Shown: positions 3,981 through 38,429, counted from the first letter of the stretch. The stretch: DNA of 46,627 bases from a virus (IMGVR_UViG_2541047706_000005:1-46627), one strand, 5' to 3'. The notes: generated from the sequence alone by a model not told the origin. A program made the numbers and translations.

Positions 3981-4517
3981 CTACTTCCCCTTGATGCTGA
4001 CATTAACGCCAGCTTTGCGAATCTCATCGGCGCATCTGTTGATAATATTTCTGTGAAACTCACAAAAAATTTTCGCCGACTGCGGCCCTAATGGGTGAAC
4101 ATCTTGCGTACTCGGCAGCACAACCTCCCGCGCCTCCAGCTCAGAAATCCGCTTCTCTGCTGCTTCCAGCTCAACACGCAGCTTCCCTACCGTTAGCGCA
4201 ATATCCTCGTTCTCCTGGTCGCGGCGTTTGATGTATTGCTGGTTTCTTTCCCGTTCATCCAGCAGCGCCAGCACGGTAGCTGGATTGGCTGCGGCGATGA
4301 ATTCAGCATTGGCCTGCTGTTCTATTTGGAAATCTTCATCGAAACCGCTTTCAGGATGCGCTCCTTCAATTCTGCAAATGGGAATATATCCAGCAGCCTC
4401 GCGATGAATTAGTGCATCATCACCATCAAATCGGCCATCTCCATATTCGAGCGACCACTCGCCACACGTTGCTTTTTCTGCCTTAGCACGTAGTGCCTGA
4501 TAGTCAATCTTGCTCAC
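3981..4517 (-). CDS. Ead/Ea22-like protein
   Basis: 178-aa acidic coiled-coil-rich product in the position of lambda ea22; family assignment from memory. Confidence 0.5.
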   Translation of the reverse strand: MSKIDYQALRAKAEKATCGEWSLEYGDGRFDGDDALIHREAAGYIPICRIEGAHPESGFDEDFQIEQQANAEFIAAANPATVLALLDERERNQQYIKRRDQENEDIALTVGKLRVELEAAEKRISELEAREVVLPSTQDVHPLGPQSAKIFCEFHRNIINRCADEIRKAGVNVSIKGK

Positions 4518-4988: not shown

Positions 4989-5443
4989 GCTGCACCTCCT
5001 TCGCGAAGCTGAGTGGCGAATTCATTAAGCTCAGCTAACAATTCATCAGCCCACTGAGCCGCTCTGCTTGCGTAGAGCATCTCCACACCCTGCGCCCGGA
5101 CTTCAGCCAGGAAAGCATCGGTGGCTGGGGTGTCTGATTGCAGAGACTTTGCGCGATAGTCATTCCACCCTCTTGCATACATGGGATTAACTTGCACTCC
5201 ATCTTTTACGCAATATGCCTGACCTCCACGGTTGATAACCTTGATTTCGTCCATAGCGCCAGACTTCAGCCCCGCATTCTCCGCCGCCAGCGCCGCGCAC
5301 TTGGCCTCCGCTTCAGCAAATTTACGCACCAGATATTCAGCGTTTGTTTCGTTAACCTTTAAATCACTTGGAATGCATTTACCTTTCAGAAATCCATCCA
5401 TCTCAATTAGTGACATTTGTTTCATTTTTTCCCACTCCGCCAC
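4985..5443 (-). CDS. Hypothetical protein (152 aa)
   Basis: ORF track; stop/start coupled with neighbours. Confidence 0.5.
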
Positions 5444-5596
5444 ATCGCATTCAGATATTTGTTTTGATTTACTGACGGAAAAGAATTTCTCTTAAGCAAT
5501 TCCTCTCTCGATGGCATTGGCTTTACGCGTTGGCGAATAATCATTTCTGCCGGAAGAATGCCGGGATTGTATGCAAGTCCTCTCATGGTAAATTCC

Positions 5597-5893
5597 TCAG
5601 TCATTACTGATAGCGCCATAGCGTGAGCGGTAATTACGCAGGCGCGGGTCGATATATTCAGGGAAGTGGGTATATGTGGCTTTGCGGAATGGTCGGATTG
5701 ATGTCTGGTAAATTCGCTCGCGTTCTTCTTTCTCTGCAAGCCATATACAGTGGCGAAATTCCTTTTCCTCTTTCGTTTCCTGCGGTAGAGACATTATCCG
5801 GTTGTAGTTTTTCCTGAATTTATCCAGCACCTCCGATACGGAATTGCCGGAACAGCGGCGCGGGTCATCCGCACCATACAGAGGCGCTGGCAT
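5597..5893 (-). CDS. Hypothetical protein (98 aa)
   Basis: ORF track. Confidence 0.45.
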
Positions 5894-5916
5894 AATGGAA
5901 TCCTTATGTTGCTAAT

Positions 5917-7006: not shown

Positions 7007-7195
7007 TTATGTCGATACCAGAGAGCTTTCTGCGTGTACATGCGCCTCTGTAACTTGCTCTCCTTCACTGTGGTTGCAAGTGACATGAATATCTCCTTCG
7101 TTACCGATTAATTCTTTCATCTGACGAATGAATTCTTCGTCTGACCAGTTATCTGTAAAACTCATGGACGGCCTTGTTGTTTCAAAATATCCCAA
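7007..7195 (-). CDS. Small hypothetical protein (kil/gam position)
   Basis: ORF track; start uncertain. Confidence 0.35.
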   Translation of the reverse strand: MGYFETTRPSMSFTDNWSDEEFIRQMKELIGNEGDIHVTCNHSEGEQVTEAHVHAESSLVST

Positions 7196-7332
7196 AGCTT
7201 TTCGAGCAAACTTTTCATTCTTGGTTGTTTAAAGTCTGCTCCGGTTAAAATATTTTTTCGTGAATGCTGCACCGATAAAATCGGGTTGAAAGGGCGAACC
7301 GATGCCGCCCCTGCAATAGCGAACTGTTGCAT
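7162..7332 (-). CDS. cIII: CIII-like regulator (FtsH inhibitor family)
   Basis: Internal start MQQFAIAGAASV...LLEKLWDILKQQGRP resembles lambda CIII (MQYAIAG...). Confidence 0.55.
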   Translation of the reverse strand: MQQFAIAGAASVRPFNPILSVQHSRKNILTGADFKQPRMKSLLEKLWDILKQQGRP

Positions 7333-7395
7333 AGGATGCTCCTTCTGTTTGATTGCATAACGAAAACGCCTCAAGTGAAGCGTTATTGGTATGCA

Positions 7396-7423
7396 TATAA
7401 AAAGGCCCTCACACTGGAGGGCA
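7396..7423 (-). terminator. Leftward rho-independent terminator upstream of cIII (tL-like)
   Basis: Minus-strand hairpin gccctc/gagggc followed by U-tract; coordinates approximate. Confidence 0.5.
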
Positions 7424-7512
7424 AAGAAGATTTCCAATAATCAGAACAAGTCGGCTCCTGTTTAGTTACGAGCGACATTGCTCACATAGCAGACTCGTAA
7501 ATCTGCTATAGG

Positions 7513-7674
7513 TGCTTATTCGCATCGCATGACAACATCAAATTTTTCGAGATTACTTTGTCGCAACAATCCTTCTTCTACGCGATCAGCTTTTCTATAA
7601 TTATCAAATTCGAAATGTTTAATTACTTCTTTCGTTTCTCGCTCTATAACTTCAACGATGTATTTCTTATTCAT
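7513..7674 (-). CDS. Small hypothetical protein (about 53 aa)
   Basis: Hand-translated; ATG overlaps stop of the upstream 98-aa gene (TAATG). Confidence 0.3.
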
Positions 7675-7970
7675 TACTCATCACCTATGGCTTTTCTGAT
7701 TGCTGCTAGACCTTTATTAACAGCTCCATACCATTCTGGATATGTTGTCGTTGTTCTATTTTTGGATTGCTTAAGTAATAACTGAAGTGCTTCGAGAAGG
7801 TCAGGCGCTGCCGCTATTAGATTGGCATCTTCAATACATTGAACTTCCTCACAGATTGCAACATACGAACGCCAGCCAGCGCCATTTTTAAGTGAGCATG
7901 CCTGGATGATTTTAATCTCATCGCCATCCATCATTATTTCCCACTTACCTTCAGTACCTTTAAATTCCAT
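7674..7970 (-). CDS. Hypothetical protein (98 aa)
   Basis: ORF track; AT-rich. Confidence 0.45.
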   Translation of the reverse strand: MEFKGTEGKWEIMMDGDEIKIIQACSLKNGAGWRSYVAICEEVQCIEDANLIAAAPDLLEALQLLLKQSKNRTTTTYPEWYGAVNKGLAAIRKAIGDE

Positions 7971-8007: not shown

Positions 8008-8631
8008 CTATGCGGACTCGGAAGGAAGTCCAATCATCTTATTCAAATCTTCTACCCGTAAAGCAGGAAGTGCTGTACTTGCTTTGTCTGCTTCTTTTGG
8101 TAGCAATTCTTTGCTTTCAGGCCAAACTTCAATAAGTCGCTTAACTGTTGTGACTGAGTTCAAAGCAGCCCATACATTTGATTCGATATCCTTTTTCTTG
8201 GCTTCAAGTTTTTGTTGCAATGCGCAGATTTCATCAAACCTTTTTGTTATTTCGTGTTCTGCATCAAACATGCATTTATCTTTGGTTGGAGTAGGGAGCA
8301 ATATATCTTCGCCGTTGCCGTCTTTCCCATATGAATGCCATCCAACCCTTCTGCCAGATACAGTCAGATAAATTGAAGTAGAACGAACATCGTATGAGTA
8401 AAATGAACATCCCATCTTTTCAAGTTCTTCACTTATAGCTACTAACCTGGATGATAACTGATCCACTTCCTCAGTTTTCTTTTTACCGCCAAACGCAATA
8501 ACTCTGGCGTCAAGTGCAAGCTGGTTCTTTAACTTTGTTACTTCTTCAAGTTCAGTGAAAACCCCAGACTTAATTAAAGCGTTACGAGCGATTTTCTCTT
8601 TCATTCTCGTAGTTAAGCGGATTGATGACAT
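8008..8631 (-). CDS. Hypothetical accessory protein (about 207 aa) immediately downstream of N
   Basis: ORF-track frame 8008..8691, start taken at internal MSSIRLTT; no recognisable family. Confidence 0.5.
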   Translation of the reverse strand: MSSIRLTTRMKEKIARNALIKSGVFTELEEVTKLKNQLALDARVIAFGGKKKTEEVDQLSSRLVAISEELEKMGCSFYSYDVRSTSIYLTVSGRRVGWHSYGKDGNGEDILLPTPTKDKCMFDAEHEITKRFDEICALQQKLEAKKKDIESNVWAALNSVTTVKRLIEVWPESKELLPKEADKASTALPALRVEDLNKMIGLPSESA

Positions 8632-8692
8632 ATTAATTCCTCTCAAATAAGTGGTTTGCTGCCTAATTTTATTTTCTGGCGACCAACACAAG

Positions 8693-9256: not shown

Positions 9257-9324
9257 CGTAGATTCATATTCGAATCGTTGTATATTCACCGCCCTGGTGA
9301 GTAGTGCGTCCTGCTGATGTGTTT

Positions 9325-9387
9325 AGTATCACCGCCAGTGGTATTTATGTCAACACCGCCAGAGATAATTTATCACCGCAGATGGTT
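9325..9387 (-). promoter_or_regulatory. Lambda oL1-oL2-oL3 operators with pL
   Basis: Three 17-bp operators matching lambda OL (tatcaccgccagtggta, caacaccgccagagata, tatcaccgcagatggtt); TTGACA/GATACT on minus strand. Confidence 0.9.
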
Positions 9388-9540
9388 ATCTGTATGTTTT
9401 TTATATAGATTTATTTTTTTGCAGGGGTGTGTGGCTTGGGAGGTGATCGAGAGATCTGAATTGCGATGTTTAGTGAGTTGTATCTATTAATTTTCAAATA
9501 AATACAATTGGTTATGTGTTTTGGGGCGAACGTGAGGCAA

Positions 9541-9565
9541 AGAAAACCCGGCACTGAGGCCGGGT
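9541..9565 (-). terminator. Rho-independent terminator ending the cI operon (tImm-like)
   Basis: Minus-strand stem cccggc/gccggg plus U-tract just after the small ORF stop; approximate coordinates. Confidence 0.6.
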
Positions 9566-9574
9566 GGGGTTTTG

Positions 9575-9745
9575 TTATTGGTGCATTTGGCAGACTGTAG
9601 TATCAGGTCCATAAGCCAAAGTAAAAACAGGCTTGTTGATCAATCCTTTGTTCTTTAATGATTGAATCATTTTACCTTGCTCGCTAACTTTTTGCTTGCT
9701 AAGTATTTCTGCCACTTGCTGTGTCAGTGATTTGTCTTTGCTCAT
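9575..9745 (-). CDS. Small ORF (about 56 aa) coupled to the upstream peptidase-like gene
   Basis: Hand-translated MSKDKSLTQQVAEILSKQK...; its ATG directly abuts the TAA of the 300-aa gene; below track cut-off. Confidence 0.4.
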   Translation of the reverse strand: MSKDKSLTQQVAEILSKQKVSEQGKMIQSLKNKGLINKPVFTLAYGPDTTVCQMHQ

Positions 9746-10648
9746 TTATGACTCACTTTGTTCTGAGAAGGGGAATGAAGACAGAACAAGAACCTGTCGA
9801 TTTGTCTTATACATGTATTCATTAATGACGTTGTGCAGATTTTTTAACGCCATGCTAAAATCTTTGTCGTATGTAAAGTCTTCTACTTTAATTCTTAAGT
9901 CATTGATAAGAGTATTTATTCCTATCGTTCTTCCGTGAGAATGCCACTTTCCGTTGTCACTAAGAGCGGTAGCGATCATTTTAGCTCTTGCTTCTTTTTC
10001 CCTCTTGGAAACTAGCTTTCCTCGTTTTGTGTTACCTTGATGAACCGTCCACTCTCTGAATTTATACTCTACAAGCCACTTCTTAAGCAAGTCTATTGAT
10101 AGCTCTCTGGCTTGCTCGTATCTCCTTAAGTGCGCAAGATCTAACTGACTAAGCATCATTAGTTCAGCTTGGGTAATGGTTCCTTCTCTGGATTTAGTAA
10201 TCATTTCTTCAACTTTATCAAGGTATCCCAAAGCAGGAACCCATTTACCGTCAGAGGATTGCACTTGAGGGTCAATGGGGCCTAATGAAGAAGCATAGTT
10301 CATGTAAATTTTATCTCCAGACATACACCATATTGTGCCTGCCGACATGGCCATATCTGGAATGATAAAATATACCTCTTGATAGAAATGCCTTGTAATT
10401 TCTACCATTTTTTCCACAGACTCAACAGAGCCACCATTTGTATTGAGTATAATAACTAGAAATCTATTGGTACGACTGTTAGCCATCTCCCCAATAGCCT
10501 CAAGTTTTGGTTGGTAAACTTCTTTTGACCATGGAAAGATACCACCGTAGTACGCTATGACGTCGCAGCTTGGGAAAAAGTTATTTTTAAATTGCTCTAA
10601 CTGCCAAGAAATGTATGTTTCTAGTGTTGAATCAAGATTTTGGCTCAT
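9746..10648 (-). CDS. ClpP-fold serine-peptidase-like protein (S49/SDH-type) in the rexAB position
   Basis: ILNTNGGSVES and PDMAMSAGTIWCMSGDKIYMNYASSLGPIDPQ align by eye with ClpP INSPGG and QAASMGA...PNSRVMIHQP blocks; directly downstream of cI on the same strand. Confidence 0.7.
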   Translation of the reverse strand: MSQNLDSTLETYISWQLEQFKNNFFPSCDVIAYYGGIFPWSKEVYQPKLEAIGEMANSRTNRFLVIILNTNGGSVESVEKMVEITRHFYQEVYFIIPDMAMSAGTIWCMSGDKIYMNYASSLGPIDPQVQSSDGKWVPALGYLDKVEEMITKSREGTITQAELMMLSQLDLAHLRRYEQARELSIDLLKKWLVEYKFREWTVHQGNTKRGKLVSKREKEARAKMIATALSDNGKWHSHGRTIGINTLINDLRIKVEDFTYDKDFSMALKNLHNVINEYMYKTNRQVLVLSSFPFSEQSES

Positions 10649-10720
10649 GTGATACCTTGCTATATCAACAATTTACAATAACATGTTGCACTATCGGTTT
10701 TTTATTAATCACAATTGGAA

Positions 10721-11437
<717 letters not shown>

Positions 11438-11444
11438 TTAAATC

Positions 11445-11509
11445 TATCACCGCAAGGGATAAATATCTAACACCGTGCGTGTTGACTATTTTACCTCTAG
11501 CGGTGATAA
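11445..11509. promoter_or_regulatory. Lambda oR3-oR2-oR1 operators with divergent pRM and pR
   Basis: tatcaccgcaagggata, taacaccgtgcgtgttg and tacctctagcggtgata between cI and cro; TTGACT...GATAAT pR. Confidence 0.9.
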
Positions 11510-11525
11510 TGGTTGCATGTACTAA

Positions 11526-11735
<210 letters not shown>

Positions 11736-11773
11736 GTAACACCGCTATTTTCACAATGGACATTCGTCCTACG

Positions 11774-12202: not shown

Positions 12203-13048
12203 ATGACAAATACAGCAAAAATACTCAACTTCGGCAGAGGTAACTTTGCCGAACAGGAGCTAAGAGTGGCTGATATCGATGATGGTTACACCAGATTCGC
12301 TAACGAGCTGCTGGAAGCTATCGCAAGTGCCGATTTAACCGCTCGCCAGTTGAAAGTTATGCTGGCCTACGTCCGGAAAACATATGGCTTCAATAAGAAA
12401 ACAGATCGAATAGCCGATGAGCAAATTGCTCAGTTAACAGGACTGTCAAGACAGAATGTTAACAAGGCTAAAAAAGAACTGATTTCAATGAATTGCCTGT
12501 TTATGGATGGAAATAAAATCGGTGTAAACAGGGAGGTATCTGCGTGGCAATTCAGCAAGTGTCTCCAAGTTAGCAACTTTGTCTCGAAGTTAGAGACAAA
12601 AAATGTCTCCAAATTAGAGACACTCAATGTCTCGAAGTTAGAGACACACAAAAGACATTCTTTAAAGACAAAAGAAAATATTAATAAACCCCCTATATCC
12701 CCCAAAAAAGTTTCTCAGAAGTTCGACCCGCTAGAAACAGAGTTGCCTGATTGGTTATCAGCAGAAACATGGTTGTCGTGGGTTACCTATCGCAAGGAGA
12801 TAGGTAAGTCGATCAAGTCTAAGCAAAGTGTCACTCAGGCTATCAACGTTCTAAGCAGAAGTCTGGAGAAGGGATATACACCTGAAGAAATTATAAACCA
12901 GAGCATCGCCAGTGGTTGGCAGGGGATTTTTGAACCCAAGACTCCAAAGGGGAAATCTCAACCGAGGCCGCAGCAGCGAGCTATGCAGGAAAACTTTGCC
13001 GCCAAAGATTACGGGCAAACTGAAATGCCTTCATGGGCGCAGGAGTGA
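12203..13048 (+). CDS. O: Replication initiator, lambda O-like
   Basis: N-terminus MTNTAKILNFGRGNFAEQE... like lambda O; iterons embedded mid-gene. Confidence 0.85.
   Translation: MTNTAKILNFGRGNFAEQELRVADIDDGYTRFANELLEAIASADLTARQLKVMLAYVRKTYGFNKKTDRIADEQIAQLTGLSRQNVNKAKKELISMNCLFMDGNKIGVNREVSAWQFSKCLQVSNFVSKLETKNVSKLETLNVSKLETHKRHSLKTKENINKPPISPKKVSQKFDPLETELPDWLSAETWLSWVTYRKEIGKSIKSKQSVTQAINVLSRSLEKGYTPEEIINQSIASGWQGIFEPKTPKGKSQPRPQQRAMQENFAAKDYGQTEMPSWAQE
12560..12650 (+). repeat. Origin iterons (four approximately 19-bp palindromic repeats) with adjacent A/T-rich tract
   Basis: Repeated tgtctc-N7-gagaca units inside the O gene followed by an AT-rich stretch. Confidence 0.8.
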
Positions 13049-33879: not shown

Positions 33880-35697
33880 ATGGTAGCTAAGTCGATCGTC
33901 GACATTGACGTAAATGACGACAAGTTTGTCGCGTTTATGGAAAGGTTTCGCGAGTACCAGAGCGCGCTGGATGATTTACCGGAAGCCTGGCGGGTAGCTG
34001 CCGTTGGTATTGGCGAAAGCAGCAAGCAGACCGAAAAGGCCAAAGGTGAGACGAAGGAGTTAGGCGCGGAGTTTAATGCCGTGGCCGAGGCCATTCTGAC
34101 TATCAACAGTGGTATCGATCGGCTCAATACCAACCTGGAAGACTCGAAGAAAAAGCAGGACGAATTCAACAAAAGTACTCGCTCTGCGAAGGGCTTCCTC
34201 AGCGATGCGACGAAAGACGCTAAATCGCTGGCAGGGCATATCAAGGAAGCGACGGCCAGCCTTCTGTCATGGGGTGGCATTGTCGGGATATTTACCGGCG
34301 TCCTTGGCGTTGGCGGCCTGTTCGGCATCAACCGGCTGGCTGCCACCACCGGTGCCCAGCGGTTTACTTCTCTCGGGCTTGGGACGAGTATCGGCGCACT
34401 TGATTCCACCGCCATAAACTACCAGAAAGCACTCGGTAATCCGGCGGGTACGCTGGGCGCTATCCGCGATTCGCAAATGGACCTGTCGAAGCGCTGGACG
34501 TTTCAGGCGATGGGGATTAACAACCCCGACCAGGACCCGGCCAAACTGCTCCCGCAGATGATCCGTAATGCGCGCGATATCTTCGTGCAGAACGGCAGCA
34601 CGCTGCAGGGCGCACAGGCGCACGGCCTGACAAACTTCTTTACACTGGACGACCTGAACCGCTTCAAAAACATGAGCGATGAAGAGATCACCGCCATGGA
34701 GAAGCGCGCGCAGCAGGATGCGCGTATGTTGCAAATTACCGACCAGCAGGCGCGCCAGTGGCAGGATTTTAACGTCCAGCTCGACTACAGCAGCCAGAGC
34801 ATCAGGAACACGTTTGTGCGCGGCCTGGGGCCACTCACGCCGCAACTGAGCAAGCTGTCTGATGCGCTGTCAGGCGCGATCGATACCGTTCTGAAATCAC
34901 CCGAACTCGGCAAGTGGATTGATGCGCTGGCCGGCGGCATTGAGCGATTCGGTAATTACCTCGCTTCTCCTGAATTTTCCACAGATGTAAGCAACTTTAT
35001 GGACAAAGTAGAGAAAATGGGAAATCTAATTGGCAAGGTTATTGATTGGGTAACAGGGAAAGCGAGTATCTCTACTGCGGATATATCATCCGGGGCAACG
35101 ATGTTGAGCCCAAGCACCATCATCGATCCGAAAACGGGAAAATCCTATACTCCTGGAAGCAATGATGACCCGCATGTATGGGGCTGGCTCAAGGGTGTTA
35201 GGCGCTTCTTTGAAGATGGAACCGTTAAAGCTGTTGATCCCACACCTGCAAATACTTCCGACAGAAACAGGACTATTGCAGATCGATTTAATAATCCGGG
35301 AAATCTGCGGTGGGCTGAAGGATATAGCAGCGAGAATACGAGAAGCGGTAAATTTGCCGTCTTCCCAACGCTGGATGAAGGCGTACTGGCGGCGACAAAG
35401 CAACTTCAAATGTATGGCGCTAAAGGAATAAATACGGTAGGAGATATTGCAAGAAAATGGGCTCCTCCTAAGGAAAATAATACCGCTGAGTATATTCGGC
35501 ATGTGGTTAAAACTACTGGATTTAATGAGAATCAGAAACTGAATCTCAATGATCCTCAGGTTATCGCGAAACTCATTTCTGCTATATCTCAAAAAGAAGG
35601 GGCTGGTAGCAGAGTTTCTGAGAGCACAGTCATTCAGATCTATAACAATACCGGTGGGAATGCAGTGGTAACTTCAGCGCAATTGGGGGCGAGGTAA
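33880..35697 (+). CDS. Tail tape measure protein (putative)
   Basis: About 605 aa, coiled-coil-rich N-half; start taken at internal MVAKSIV. Confidence 0.55.
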   Translation: MVAKSIVDIDVNDDKFVAFMERFREYQSALDDLPEAWRVAAVGIGESSKQTEKAKGETKELGAEFNAVAEAILTINSGIDRLNTNLEDSKKKQDEFNKSTRSAKGFLSDATKDAKSLAGHIKEATASLLSWGGIVGIFTGVLGVGGLFGINRLAATTGAQRFTSLGLGTSIGALDSTAINYQKALGNPAGTLGAIRDSQMDLSKRWTFQAMGINNPDQDPAKLLPQMIRNARDIFVQNGSTLQGAQAHGLTNFFTLDDLNRFKNMSDEEITAMEKRAQQDARMLQITDQQARQWQDFNVQLDYSSQSIRNTFVRGLGPLTPQLSKLSDALSGAIDTVLKSPELGKWIDALAGGIERFGNYLASPEFSTDVSNFMDKVEKMGNLIGKVIDWVTGKASISTADISSGATMLSPSTIIDPKTGKSYTPGSNDDPHVWGWLKGVRRFFEDGTVKAVDPTPANTSDRNRTIADRFNNPGNLRWAEGYSSENTRSGKFAVFPTLDEGVLAATKQLQMYGAKGINTVGDIARKWAPPKENNTAEYIRHVVKTTGFNENQKLNLNDPQVIAKLISAISQKEGAGSRVSESTVIQIYNNTGGNAVVTSAQLGAR

Positions 35698-36407
35698 TGG
35701 GATTCACACGTGAAATGTATAAGCTGGGTTTTGAAATATCCCCAGTAATACTTTGCGGAGGGATAGCGCAGGCCATTCCTGGAGGAATGCTCCCGATCGT
35801 CGCTTTGACGCAGAGCGCGAGCTTTGTTACGGGACTGCTTGGAGGAGCCATAAACCTAACAGATCTGGATAAATATTTCTGCCACTGGCGCCCGGTTCAG
35901 GGCGCCACAATGGTTGATTATGAAATTGCCAGATACCCTTTTGCCAACCAGGTAGTAGCTGCGAACGCCTTGCTTGCTCAGCCTTTGCGCGTTTCGTTGG
36001 TAATGGAGGCTCCGGTCAATGAAAACACCGGGGCGATGACAAAGCTCGTCACTATGAGTGCTTTGCAGTCTGTCCTTCAGGCGCATTCTAACTTAGGCGG
36101 CACGTTTATCGTCGCCACCCCATCCGTTATCTATAGCAACTGCATTTTGCGTGTAGTGAGGGACATTACCTCTGGTAACGATCCATTACCACAGCGTTCA
36201 TGGATATGGGATTTCGAGCAGCCACTGATAACCGATAATGGCGCAGAGCAGGCCGTGAACAATTTTTTAAACAAGATTGGCGCCGGGGATATGGTAACAG
36301 ACCCATCCTGGACCAATACAGCCAATGCTCTTGGCAACACGCCACTCGGGAGCTCTGTTTCGGAAGCAATCACCGGGCTGTTGGGTAAGTTGGGGGTAGG
36401 GCCATGA
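35697..36407 (+). CDS. Tail/baseplate assembly protein
   Basis: ORF track; coupled to tape measure. Confidence 0.45.
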   Translation: MGFTREMYKLGFEISPVILCGGIAQAIPGGMLPIVALTQSASFVTGLLGGAINLTDLDKYFCHWRPVQGATMVDYEIARYPFANQVVAANALLAQPLRVSLVMEAPVNENTGAMTKLVTMSALQSVLQAHSNLGGTFIVATPSVIYSNCILRVVRDITSGNDPLPQRSWIWDFEQPLITDNGAEQAVNNFLNKIGAGDMVTDPSWTNTANALGNTPLGSSVSEAITGLLGKLGVGP

Positions 36408-36682
36408 CAACCCAGAATTATCCGTTTACCGGCAATGATCGTCAAAGTATGACATTTACACCGATCCTTGATGGCACCGTCTATAACTGCCAGGTTAAAT
36501 GGAACATTGCCGGGATGAGGTGGTATGTCCTCATTACAGATGGCTCTGGGAATACCATTCTTAATACCCCGCTCGTTGGCTCCGTGCTTAACGGTGGAAT
36601 AAATATTATCTCCGGAGTGTTTAATTCGTCCTCCATGTACTGGCGAGAGCAGAATGGACAGATTGAGGTAAACAACTCATGA
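36404..36682 (+). CDS. Small tail protein
   Basis: ORF track. Confidence 0.4.
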   Translation: MTTQNYPFTGNDRQSMTFTPILDGTVYNCQVKWNIAGMRWYVLITDGSGNTILNTPLVGSVLNGGINIISGVFNSSSMYWREQNGQIEVNNS

Positions 36683-37716
36683 GATATTATGATATTGAGA
36701 TAACCATTCCTGCTGAAGGCGCCTCTCCGGAAAGAACGATAAAATACAGTAGCCATAAGAACGGAGTTTACAACCCAGGCGCCCTGATGATTGAGTTTGA
36801 TATCCTCAGGTACGGTGAATCGACTCCCCAGGGCGAGACTCACCTGACCATCTGGGGTATTGGCCCAAAAGAAATGCAGCAGGCTCGCCAGAATTTCTTT
36901 GGCAAAAAAATTAAAATATTCCTTGGGATGAAAGACGGGCTGCCATTGGCTGGAAAGGTTACCGCGCCAAAACTGGTATTGGATGGCGTGATAAATCAGG
37001 TCTTTGGTAACTGGCAGGGTATTGAGTTACGACTCGACTTCATAATCGTGGTTGGTCCTGTCCAGAACGTGCCAAATAACAAACCCGTACCCCTTCCTTT
37101 AACCTTTGACTGGAAGGAGGGGCAGAAGCTTTCTGTAGCCCTCACGCAGTGTTTTATGAACATCAGAGGGTATACGTTCAATATCAACATAAGCGACCGG
37201 CTAATCCTTAATCATTACCGGGGGCTGTTTTGTGATGACATTGTCACCCTGGCCAAGGACCTTAATGCTTTTTCACGTTCCAGAATTCGCGATAGCGGGT
37301 ACTCTGGTGTAGAGATCGCAATAGTGAATGGTAATGAGATCCGGGTATGGGATAACGATTATGATAACCACCCGGATAAGACTTCTGTTTCCAGCGCCGT
37401 AGCCAGAAGTAACAGCCCAACCCAAATAGGTTTCAAGGATTTAATAGGTCAGCCAACATGGGTGGCATTTAACACAATCAGCATGGCGTGCGTAATGCGC
37501 GGTGATATTCAGGTTGGCGATCACATCCTGATGCCTAAAAAAAGCACTCCTTTGATACAGGCCTCTTCGTACTCCCAATATCGAGAAGACTCTGCCTTTA
37601 CTGGCGACTTTATTGTGAACTCCGTTCGCCTGTTAGGAAATAGCAGGCAACCAACGGCAGAAGCATGGGTAACAATTATTGAGGCTTCACCTTTCATTAA
37701 GGCAGGTAATGCATGA
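36679..37716 (+). CDS. Baseplate hub-like protein
   Basis: ORF track; position. Confidence 0.45.
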   Translation: MRYYDIEITIPAEGASPERTIKYSSHKNGVYNPGALMIEFDILRYGESTPQGETHLTIWGIGPKEMQQARQNFFGKKIKIFLGMKDGLPLAGKVTAPKLVLDGVINQVFGNWQGIELRLDFIIVVGPVQNVPNNKPVPLPLTFDWKEGQKLSVALTQCFMNIRGYTFNINISDRLILNHYRGLFCDDIVTLAKDLNAFSRSRIRDSGYSGVEIAIVNGNEIRVWDNDYDNHPDKTSVSSAVARSNSPTQIGFKDLIGQPTWVAFNTISMACVMRGDIQVGDHILMPKKSTPLIQASSYSQYREDSAFTGDFIVNSVRLLGNSRQPTAEAWVTIIEASPFIKAGNA

Positions 37717-38429
37717 GCATCGACAACAAGCTTAATTTTGCCTCAAGCATGAACAGGTTTACTGAAAGAAAGATTGAAAATGCGCTTCAAAAATCAGGGA
37801 AAGTTCTTCCGGCGAGCGTGGTTAAGCAAACAGGGAATATGATCACCGTCTCCTTTGAGCTAAGGGATATCCCATATGTTTTGCCGCAAGTGACTATCCC
37901 CTTATTCGGCCCTCAATATATTCGTTACCCTATGCAGCCGGGAGACAAGGGGATCGTTATCCCTGCAGATACTTACATTGGCGGGGTTAGCGGTCAGGGA
38001 GGCGGCATTGCGGATATGACTCCGCCAGCAAACTTAAGCGCTCTTGTTTTCTTGCCGATCAGTAATACCGAGTGGCAGGGTGTCGACGGGCAGGTGGTGA
38101 CGGTATACGGCCCGGAGGGTGTAACGCTGCGCGACAGCGGCAGCAACACGACGTTTCTCCTGAAGCCTGACAGCATCGCCATTTCCACACCTGACAGCTT
38201 CACCGTAACCGTTGGCGGGACAGTTTTTTCACTGACCGGTAGCAAATGGAGCCTTTCAGGACAGGCTGGTCACCTGCAGGATTCAGTGGCCAGTACCAGC
38301 CCGGCAATCATGCACGCTGGATGGCAGTCGCTTCTGGCCTGGCTTAACAGCCATGAACATTCAAACGGCAACGATGGAAATGATACCGGGGGGCCGACTT
38401 CAACGTTTAACGGGAGTATCACCGAGTGA
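37713..38429 (+). CDS. Baseplate protein
   Basis: ORF track. Confidence 0.45.
   Translation: MSIDNKLNFASSMNRFTERKIENALQKSGKVLPASVVKQTGNMITVSFELRDIPYVLPQVTIPLFGPQYIRYPMQPGDKGIVIPADTYIGGVSGQGGGIADMTPPANLSALVFLPISNTEWQGVDGQVVTVYGPEGVTLRDSGSNTTFLLKPDSIAISTPDSFTVTVGGTVFSLTGSKWSLSGQAGHLQDSVASTSPAIMHAGWQSLLAWLNSHEHSNGNDGNDTGGPTSTFNGSITE

Follow-up and report, generated by a model that had tools for sequence, protein, structure and literature searches.

A two-gene cassette in place of rexA-rexB

The DNA analyzed here is a viral stretch of 46,627 nucleotides (nt) (IMGVR_UViG_2541047706_000005:1-46627), called the window below; all coordinates are those of the whole window unless another sequence is named. 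Its cI repressor gene is of the lambda type, and in the place that rexA and rexB occupy in lambda it carries a two-gene cassette, consisting of a gene for a 300-amino-acid (aa) soluble ClpP-fold serine protease of the SDH type and, directly behind it, a 56-aa open reading frame (ORF). The main new result of our analysis is that this small ORF is the obligate partner of the protease: a partner gene lies downstream of the protease gene in 79 of the 79 cross-phylum loci in which pairing could be counted. The cI operon, its terminator, and the boundary of the slot are laid out as follows.

10721..11434, minus strand: cI repressor of the lambda type, first gene of the operon (Pfam HTH_3 and Peptidase_S24)
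10649..10720, minus strand: 72-nt leader from the cI stop to the protease start, with no consensus promoter or terminator
9746..10648, minus strand: gene for the 300-aa soluble SDH-type ClpP-fold serine protease (from ORF, Pfam, and fold)
9575..9745, minus strand: gene for the 56-aa partner, its ATG abutting the protease stop (TAA ATG)
9566..10724, no strand assigned: segment replacing rexB-rexA, 1159 base pairs (bp) for lambda's 1405 bp (35826-37230), delimited by the BLAST junctions
9565-9546, minus strand: intrinsic terminator ending the cI operon (7-bp stem with 6 GC pairs, T-run)
9325..9353, minus strand: pL promoter (TTGACA-17-GATACT), homologous to lambda pL/oL, at the slot boundary

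The junctions were mapped by BLAST of the window against lambda (NC_001416). The cI/oR/cro region of lambda (37231-38255) matches window positions 10725-11749 at 97% DNA identity, and the pL/oL region (35550-35825) matches 9286-9565 at 90%, to the base past the rexB stop. Because lambda homology stops at both junctions, 9566-10724 is a clean substitution for lambda 35826-37230. An earlier note on this DNA had claimed just such a replacement of rexA-rexB between lambda-like cI, cro, and operator flanks, by a 300-aa gene translationally coupled to a 56-aa ORF, and these claims hold, gene coordinates included; the TAA of the protease gene is followed by the partner's ATG with zero gap and in the same reading frame. 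Two of its descriptions needed adjustment. The cassette had been called much more AT-rich than cI, and it is indeed AT-richer, but only moderately so (GC 0.36 to 0.42 versus 0.45 to 0.48). The "tImm-like" terminator is likewise present, but it is more than similar in kind: the hairpin at 9546-9565 falls within the stretch that aligns with lambda 35550-35825 and is lambda's own post-rexB terminator.

A consensus scan of the minus strand found neither a sigma-70 promoter nor a terminator in the interval between cI and the protease gene. Cotranscription with cI would therefore be the simplest reading, and the layout fits the expression from the cI promoters that the earlier note had expected. One internal promoter candidate read by eye (TTGTAA-18-TATCAC), which abuts the ATG, was dismissed; pR was also found in the signal scan of the window. 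The 72-nt leader is common to a cassette that stands behind a different repressor in Escherichia coli 2015C-3121 (92% identity, shared block 9522-10733), and it belongs to the mobile unit.

The 300-aa protein is a predicted SDH-type serine protease

The core of the 300-aa protein (residues 64-199, profile positions 94-216 of 286) matches the Pfam family SDH_protease (PF01972) at 41.0 bits against a gathering score of 31.3. Its RefSeq/PGAP product name is "SDH family Clp fold serine proteinase," and its PHROG match is phrog_11747 (2e-99), a family of "unknown function." Several other profiles fall below their cutoffs: the NCBIfam equivalog Clp_like_SDH (NF047768; 54.5 bits, cutoff 250), NfeD1b_N (28.9 versus 40), SppA_dom (20.2 versus 155), and CLP_protease (17.5 versus 20.2 bits). 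Because only the core fits PF01972 and the NF047768 cutoff is missed, we place the protein in a divergent, distinct subfamily, which is defined by a cross-phylum identity of about 50% and by the partner gene. Structure-level comparison assigns it the ClpP/crotonase fold, to which a family-specific helical extension of roughly 120 residues is added, and a profile search of PDB sequences returned no solved structure of the family. It has no membrane segment by hydropathy, its maximum Kyte-Doolittle value over 19 residues being 1.17, below 1.6.

Conservation was computed on 31 homologs and then on 72 cross-phylum homologs. In the larger set, 68 positions are conserved at 95% or more, including G72, G73, S102, D126, and H238, and also K189, K196, and K218. 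The GG72-73, AMS102AGT, and GPID126PQ blocks are invariant or nearly so, and in a profile alignment AMS102AGT falls on SAGT, the serine motif of the NfeD protease PH1510-N. S102, D126, and H238 are accordingly the predicted catalytic triad, and their order along the sequence, Ser-Asp-His, agrees with the name of the SDH family.

10343..10345, minus strand: Ser102 codon (AMSAGT), predicted nucleophile, invariant in the 31 and in the 72 homologs
10271..10273, minus strand: Asp126 codon (GPIDPQ), predicted triad acid, conserved at 95% or more across phyla
9935..9937, minus strand: His238 codon (WHSHGR), predicted triad base, invariant

Because the three lysines are conserved as well, a Ser-Lys mechanism is also possible. 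As judged by its conserved residues and its fold, the protease would seem to be catalytically intact. The earlier note had proposed a ClpP/S49-like peptidase on the strength of short sequence blocks, and the Pfam score, the agreeing fold, and the conservation of the quoted motifs all bear it out. In a structure search of BFVD with the protease model, the best full-length viral matches were giant-virus proteins annotated as "serine dehydrogenase proteinase," from Mimivirus LCMiAC01, Hyperionvirus (several distinct entries), Indivirus, and Klosneuvirus.

The 56-aa protein is the constant partner of the protease

Pairing was counted on the best 80 cross-phylum loci, one of which has no downstream sequence. 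A simple ORF call found an ORF of 55 to 91 aa starting between -10 and +44 nt from the protease stop in 72 loci, and a hidden Markov model of the partner recovered the 7 loci that the ORF caller had missed. Exact protein matches led to 10 lineages, and all 10 have the partner; among them are Klebsiella, Shewanella, three metagenome or metagenome-assembled genome (MAG) lineages, Pectobacterium, Edwardsiella, Proteus, and Pasteurella. The small ORF thus travels with the large gene, a point on which the earlier note had made its proposal depend. The two genes differ greatly in their rates of change: mean pairwise identity is 20% for the partner and 56% for the protease. Their divergences are correlated (r = 0.77), and the genes are therefore coinherited, with the partner evolving much faster. 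A tight two-gene operon with a small, fast-evolving cognate partner is the arrangement of a type II-like toxin-antitoxin (TA) system, and the cassette has it.

The partner matches phrog_28875 (E value of 2.5e-29) and no Pfam family, and it is annotated as "hypothetical" everywhere among the relatives found, which numbered 3 close ones in a single-sequence search and 47 in a profile search. A hint of an ArgR-like DNA-binding domain (E value of 0.005) was rejected, being seen in 1 of 63 family members. An AlphaFold2 model has helices at residues 7-17 and 22-32 and then an extended tail (pLDDT confidence score, 53 to 57), and two predicted helices followed by an extended motif are common to all partners. 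The motif is the following.

9605..9646, minus strand: partner linear motif GLINKPVFTLAYGP, residues 34-47, conserved in the family

The family consensus reads G-[LIV]-x-K-K-x-x-Y-x-L-P-x-x-D-T-I-G-[KR], of which GL[LI]..P.F.LAYGP is the enteric subtype. In the model, the motif lies in the low-confidence tail, as would be expected for a segment that becomes ordered upon binding.

No partner gene was found at two distant SDH homologs (26 to 29% identity), those of Shewanella phage MuM16-1 and Gordonia phage BeeGee, and because such homologs lack it, the partner defines a subfamily within the SDH proteases. Distant SDH homologs (26 to 30% identity) occur in temperate phages of other phyla, including Porphyromonas phages; the genes of MuM16-1 (locus L003, 4932-5840) and BeeGee (gene 31; locus L004, 4809-5771) are in accessory-looking positions.

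Loss of the cassette in E. coli is asymmetric

Of the 21 E. coli genomes with a hit, 4 have lost the protease gene or carry it in interrupted form. In three of these 4 (FHI_NMBU_10, strain 48, and JNEC-KY176) it is deleted, and an intact partner stands directly behind the repressor.

4028-4198 of locus L100 (E. coli FHI_NMBU_10): orphan partner, 56-aa ORF, protease deleted

These orphan-partner loci retain 13 nt of the 3' end of the protease gene, and the deletion therefore took place from a full cassette. In E. coli CP52E (locus L102, 1006-2964), ISEc52, of the IS3 family, has inserted into the 5' portion of the protease gene, leaving the partner ORF whole. The reverse, an intact protease without its partner, was seen in none of the loci examined. 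Loss in this direction is what would be expected if the protease were costly or toxic and the partner harmless or protective.

The same four genomes could also be taken to mean that the cassette is decaying or nonfunctional cargo. This we find scarcely credible, given that both ORFs are intact in the window, that the catalytic residues never vary, with conservation of 95% or more at 68 positions across phyla, and that 11 full-length copies in E. coli, which stand behind different repressors, are 99.6 to 100% identical.

Distribution and mobility

The protease family comprises 4334 database clusters at an E value of ≤0.001. A scan of about 100,000 species genomes, one per species, found relatives in 487 of them, and their occurrence is patchy. 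The best 80 loci, at 45 to 66% identity, come from Proteobacteria, Bacteroidota, Acidobacteria, Verrucomicrobia, Firmicutes, Spirochaetes, Campylobacterota, and others. There is no third gene: among 414 neighbor proteins (±3 genes) of these 80 loci, no family recurs in more than 3 loci, and the module is therefore autonomous and its insertion sites variable. Flavobacteriaceae of different genera (loci L042, L055, L066, L068, and L075) have near-identical partners between nonsyntenic flanks, an indication that the pair has recently moved by horizontal transfer. A protease-partner pair at 48% identity was also seen in an archaeal MAG, Candidatus Borrarchaeota (locus L046, 298-1383, on a 3.5-kb contig), where it represents either an interdomain transfer or a binning contaminant.

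In E. coli the full cassette is rare. It occurs in 17 of 5426 complete genomes, only one of which, EC416, has it together with a lambda-type cI. Plasmids rarely carry it, and in the one E. coli case the carrier is a lambdoid prophage region on a plasmid. The cassette is best explained as a self-contained unit of two genes that moves horizontally and that, in the window, is cargo of the cI operon.

The repressor slot and other genomic contexts

At least four different repressors directly precede the cassette in E. coli: lambda cI, a hybrid LexA-family repressor, WP_171816575, and WP_001056249, the last with a small membrane protein between repressor and cassette. The hybrid repressor (7181-7876 in locus L001, 6181-6876 in locus L099) has only its C-terminal half in common with lambda cI; its homology block with the window ends at 11131, and the cassette behind it is 100% identical to ours in L001 and 99.7% identical in L099. 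A repressor of this kind, with a different N-terminal (operator-binding) domain, shows that recombination has occurred within cI beside the cassette. Homologous pairs stand behind a CI-type repressor in a Rac-like prophage of Klebsiella aerogenes, in Edwardsiella tarda, Proteus mirabilis, and Pasteurella multocida (in these three with a divergent cro-like gene upstream), and in an enteric-like genome (locus L018). In Edwardsiella and Proteus, the N antiterminator is the next annotated gene downstream of the pair, and the Pectobacterium pair lies near an integrase and a Y1 transposase.

The slot itself is a familiar one. The earlier note had called it an established exclusion hotspot, and the literature agrees: the cI-N interval is described as a mosaic hotspot for accessory genes that are expressed in the lysogen, rexAB and the abortive-infection gene bstA among them (PMC8585504, PMC7067206), in passages that cite Degnan et al. 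2007. Other phages of lambda immunity hold in the same slot rexAB, HicAB (mEp234, HK106), gp48/49 (HK97), or a protein with an NYN domain (ev099).

A position next to the repressor could mean that the pair serves the phage life cycle, the protease degrading CII, CIII, N, or a host factor, or assisting induction, and the partner tuning the protease. The pair does immediately adjoin cI, with which it would be cotranscribed judging from the layout, and it occupies the same position in lambdoid prophages of six genera. Yet phages of identical immunity exchange rexAB, HicAB, and NYN cargo in this slot, and the module is therefore dispensable for the lambda circuit; moreover, intact modules with their partners sit at dozens of nonprophage chromosomal sites, in phyla without lambdoid phages. 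We consider such a regulatory role very unlikely.

In E. coli 2015C-3121 (locus L002), HicA/HicB (5322-5911) immediately adjoin the cassette on the opposite strand, and a gene for a 53-aa "transmembrane anchored protein" (7281-7442) separates the repressor from the protease; several small modules can thus be stacked in the slot.

Beyond the Enterobacterales and Pasteurellaceae, the pair forms an islet of its own, in most cases with housekeeping genes around it. The Shewanella islet lies between purC (SAICAR synthase) and an ompA-like gene, another lies between hflX and trpC, one is beside IS1595, and one locus is beside PIN/MazE and Fic genes. Pfam and PADLOC searches of 148 neighbors (±2 genes) of 41 loci gave, in raw counts, type I restriction-modification in about 3 of the 41 loci and "mad" hits for at most 4 proteins; the rest are mostly housekeeping.

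These contexts bear on two further explanations. The first is that the pair is purely an addiction module, a TA system that stabilizes the prophage or islet by post-segregational killing and plays no part against other phages. Compatible with it are the two-gene layout, the rapid evolution of the small partner, and the asymmetric loss, as well as the locus beside PIN/MazE and Fic and the fact that HicAB occupies or flanks the same slot. Stand-alone chromosomal copies between core genes, however, would gain little from addiction, and many TA systems in prophage slots also defend, so that addiction does not exclude defense. Pure addiction strikes us as quite unlikely.

The second is that protease and partner form a physiological enzyme-substrate or adaptor pair, which the prophage carries as a host-fitness moron; the partner might be cut at its motif into an intracellular regulatory peptide, or it might be an adaptor that delivers substrates. 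The conserved extended motif does look like a place for cleavage or docking, conservation of the protease across phyla is very strong, and most nonenteric copies lie between housekeeping genes and outside defense islands. Against these points stand the patchy distribution suggestive of horizontal gene transfer, the variable sites, and the very low prevalence in E. coli, all of them unusual for a physiological pathway. No gene for an exporter, receptor, or regulator accompanies the pair, which moreover recurs in a lysogen-expressed repressor slot otherwise holding exclusion and TA systems. On balance, a physiological pair seems unlikely.

Two observations concern other parts of the window. The O-like replication gene (12203-13048) has a 24-nt unit three times in tandem at 12580-12651, encoding repeated VSKLET, and these repeats are probably origin iterons, as in lambdoid O genes. 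Downstream of N, the pL operon has a 227-aa ORF (8008-8691, minus strand) and a 98-aa ORF (7674-7970, minus strand), which may be further early-left accessory genes.

Proposed function

The reading that we favor, without great confidence, is that the cassette is a lysogen-expressed, TA-like protease system that may act in exclusion or abortive infection. In the lysogen, to go by the layout, both genes would be transcribed with cI from pRM (and pRE), transcription ending at the lambda terminator. The partner could then bind the protease through its linear motif, as a pseudo-substrate or as a labile inhibitor, and keep it inactive. A superinfecting phage that stops host expression, or that titrates or destroys the partner, would release the protease, and the freed protease might cleave a conserved cellular or phage target, so that the infection is aborted or excluded, by analogy with TA-type abortive infection, RexAB, BstA, and HicAB.

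Several of our observations weigh against this proposal. A protease that is about 50% identical between phyla is unusual for an arms-race gene. The classical defense-island signal is weak outside the enterics; with neighbors that are mostly housekeeping genes, the case for defense therefore rests on the prophage slot and on the TA-like genetics. Of these, the genetics include few orphan-partner cases, and the three deletions may be one event. No sequenced phage isolate among 50,697 records has the cassette or an orphan partner. Finally, PADLOC-DB v2.0.0 had no family for either protein at an E value of ≤1, a null that marks an unknown system and is not proof of defense.

A wider proposal can be framed, which we regard as doubtful: that the cassette represents a new class of anti-phage or TA system, in which a soluble ClpP-fold Ser-Asp-His protease would be the effector and a cognate protein of about 60 aa, with a pseudo-substrate-like motif, would be its inhibitor or sensor, the whole having reached most bacterial phyla by horizontal gene transfer, with lambdoid prophages having domesticated it as a functional replacement for RexAB.

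If the cassette does prove to be a protease-based TA or abortive-infection system, the ClpP-fold SDH protease would be a new effector class in bacterial immunity, and PF01972, so far without a function, would gain one, giant-virus structural relatives carrying the same annotation; a target conserved across phyla would then need explaining. The pair is compact (300 plus 56 aa), about 50% identical from Enterobacteria to Bacteroidota, Acidobacteria, and Firmicutes, and always partnered, and the system is amenable to direct testing in E. coli K-12 with lambda genetics. The cI-N slot has already yielded RexAB and BstA, so new cargo found there is a strong lead for prophage-encoded immunity.

Comparison with known systems

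The earlier note did not recognize the system as one already described, and this was right only in part. Neither protein has a PADLOC match, but the protease family and its name are already known (PF01972, PGAP, and phrog_11747). Within a literature coverage that leaves most subscription journals outside, we found no description of the function of the pair, of its obligate partner, or of its role in the rexAB slot, nor any paper on SDH/PF01972, ClpP-like, or S49 proteases in defense or on new repressor-slot cargo.

The cassette shares its locus with RexAB, having replaced rexB-rexA base for base from the cI stop to the lambda terminator; like RexAB it consists of two genes, and in the lysogen these are presumably transcribed from the cI promoters. 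There the likeness ends, as there is neither a sequence nor a fold relationship: no Rex family matched either protein, and nothing in the window corresponds to the rexB-rexA segment of lambda. RexB is a membrane protein, and RexA acts as a sensor in the cytoplasm (PMC8585504), whereas the cassette would supply a soluble ClpP-fold protease and a soluble 56-aa partner. BstA of the Salmonella prophage BTP1, a proven abortive-infection protein (PMC8585504), similarly occupies the slot downstream of a prophage repressor but is an unrelated single protein with a DNA anti-BstA element. HicAB of mEp234 and HK106 is a TA pair with the toxin gene first and occupies the same slot, but it too is unrelated, HicA being an RNase toxin.

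Among proteases, the closest relatives are those of the PF01972/NF047768 SDH family, with archaeal, bacterial, and giant-virus members, to which the Pfam gathering score, the RefSeq name, and the giant-virus structural matches connect the cassette protease. SppA and NfeD work as Ser-Lys enzymes associated with the membrane; ClpP supplies the proteolytic subunit of an ATP-dependent protease. The cassette protease differs from all three in being soluble and in having a helical extension of about 120 residues, a conserved Ser/Asp/His order, and a dedicated small partner; the membrane association typical of the S49 proteases SppA and NfeD is thus missing from it. The entry for SppA in PDB (4kwb) describes a C-terminal peptide in the active site, which by analogy offers a precedent for occupancy of such a site by a peptide, as the partner's motif might achieve.

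Proteases as toxic effectors, borne by prophages or plasmids and restrained until triggered, are themselves not new. Lit, the protease of the e14 prophage, is a metalloprotease. IetAS pairs a serine-protease toxin with an ATPase antitoxin (PMC13069673). Both resemble the proposed system in this general respect and differ from the cassette in their folds and in their partners. In summary, the module would probably work much as a type II TA or abortive-infection pair with the toxin gene first, and it resembles RexAB, BstA, and HicAB in its locus and presumed expression.

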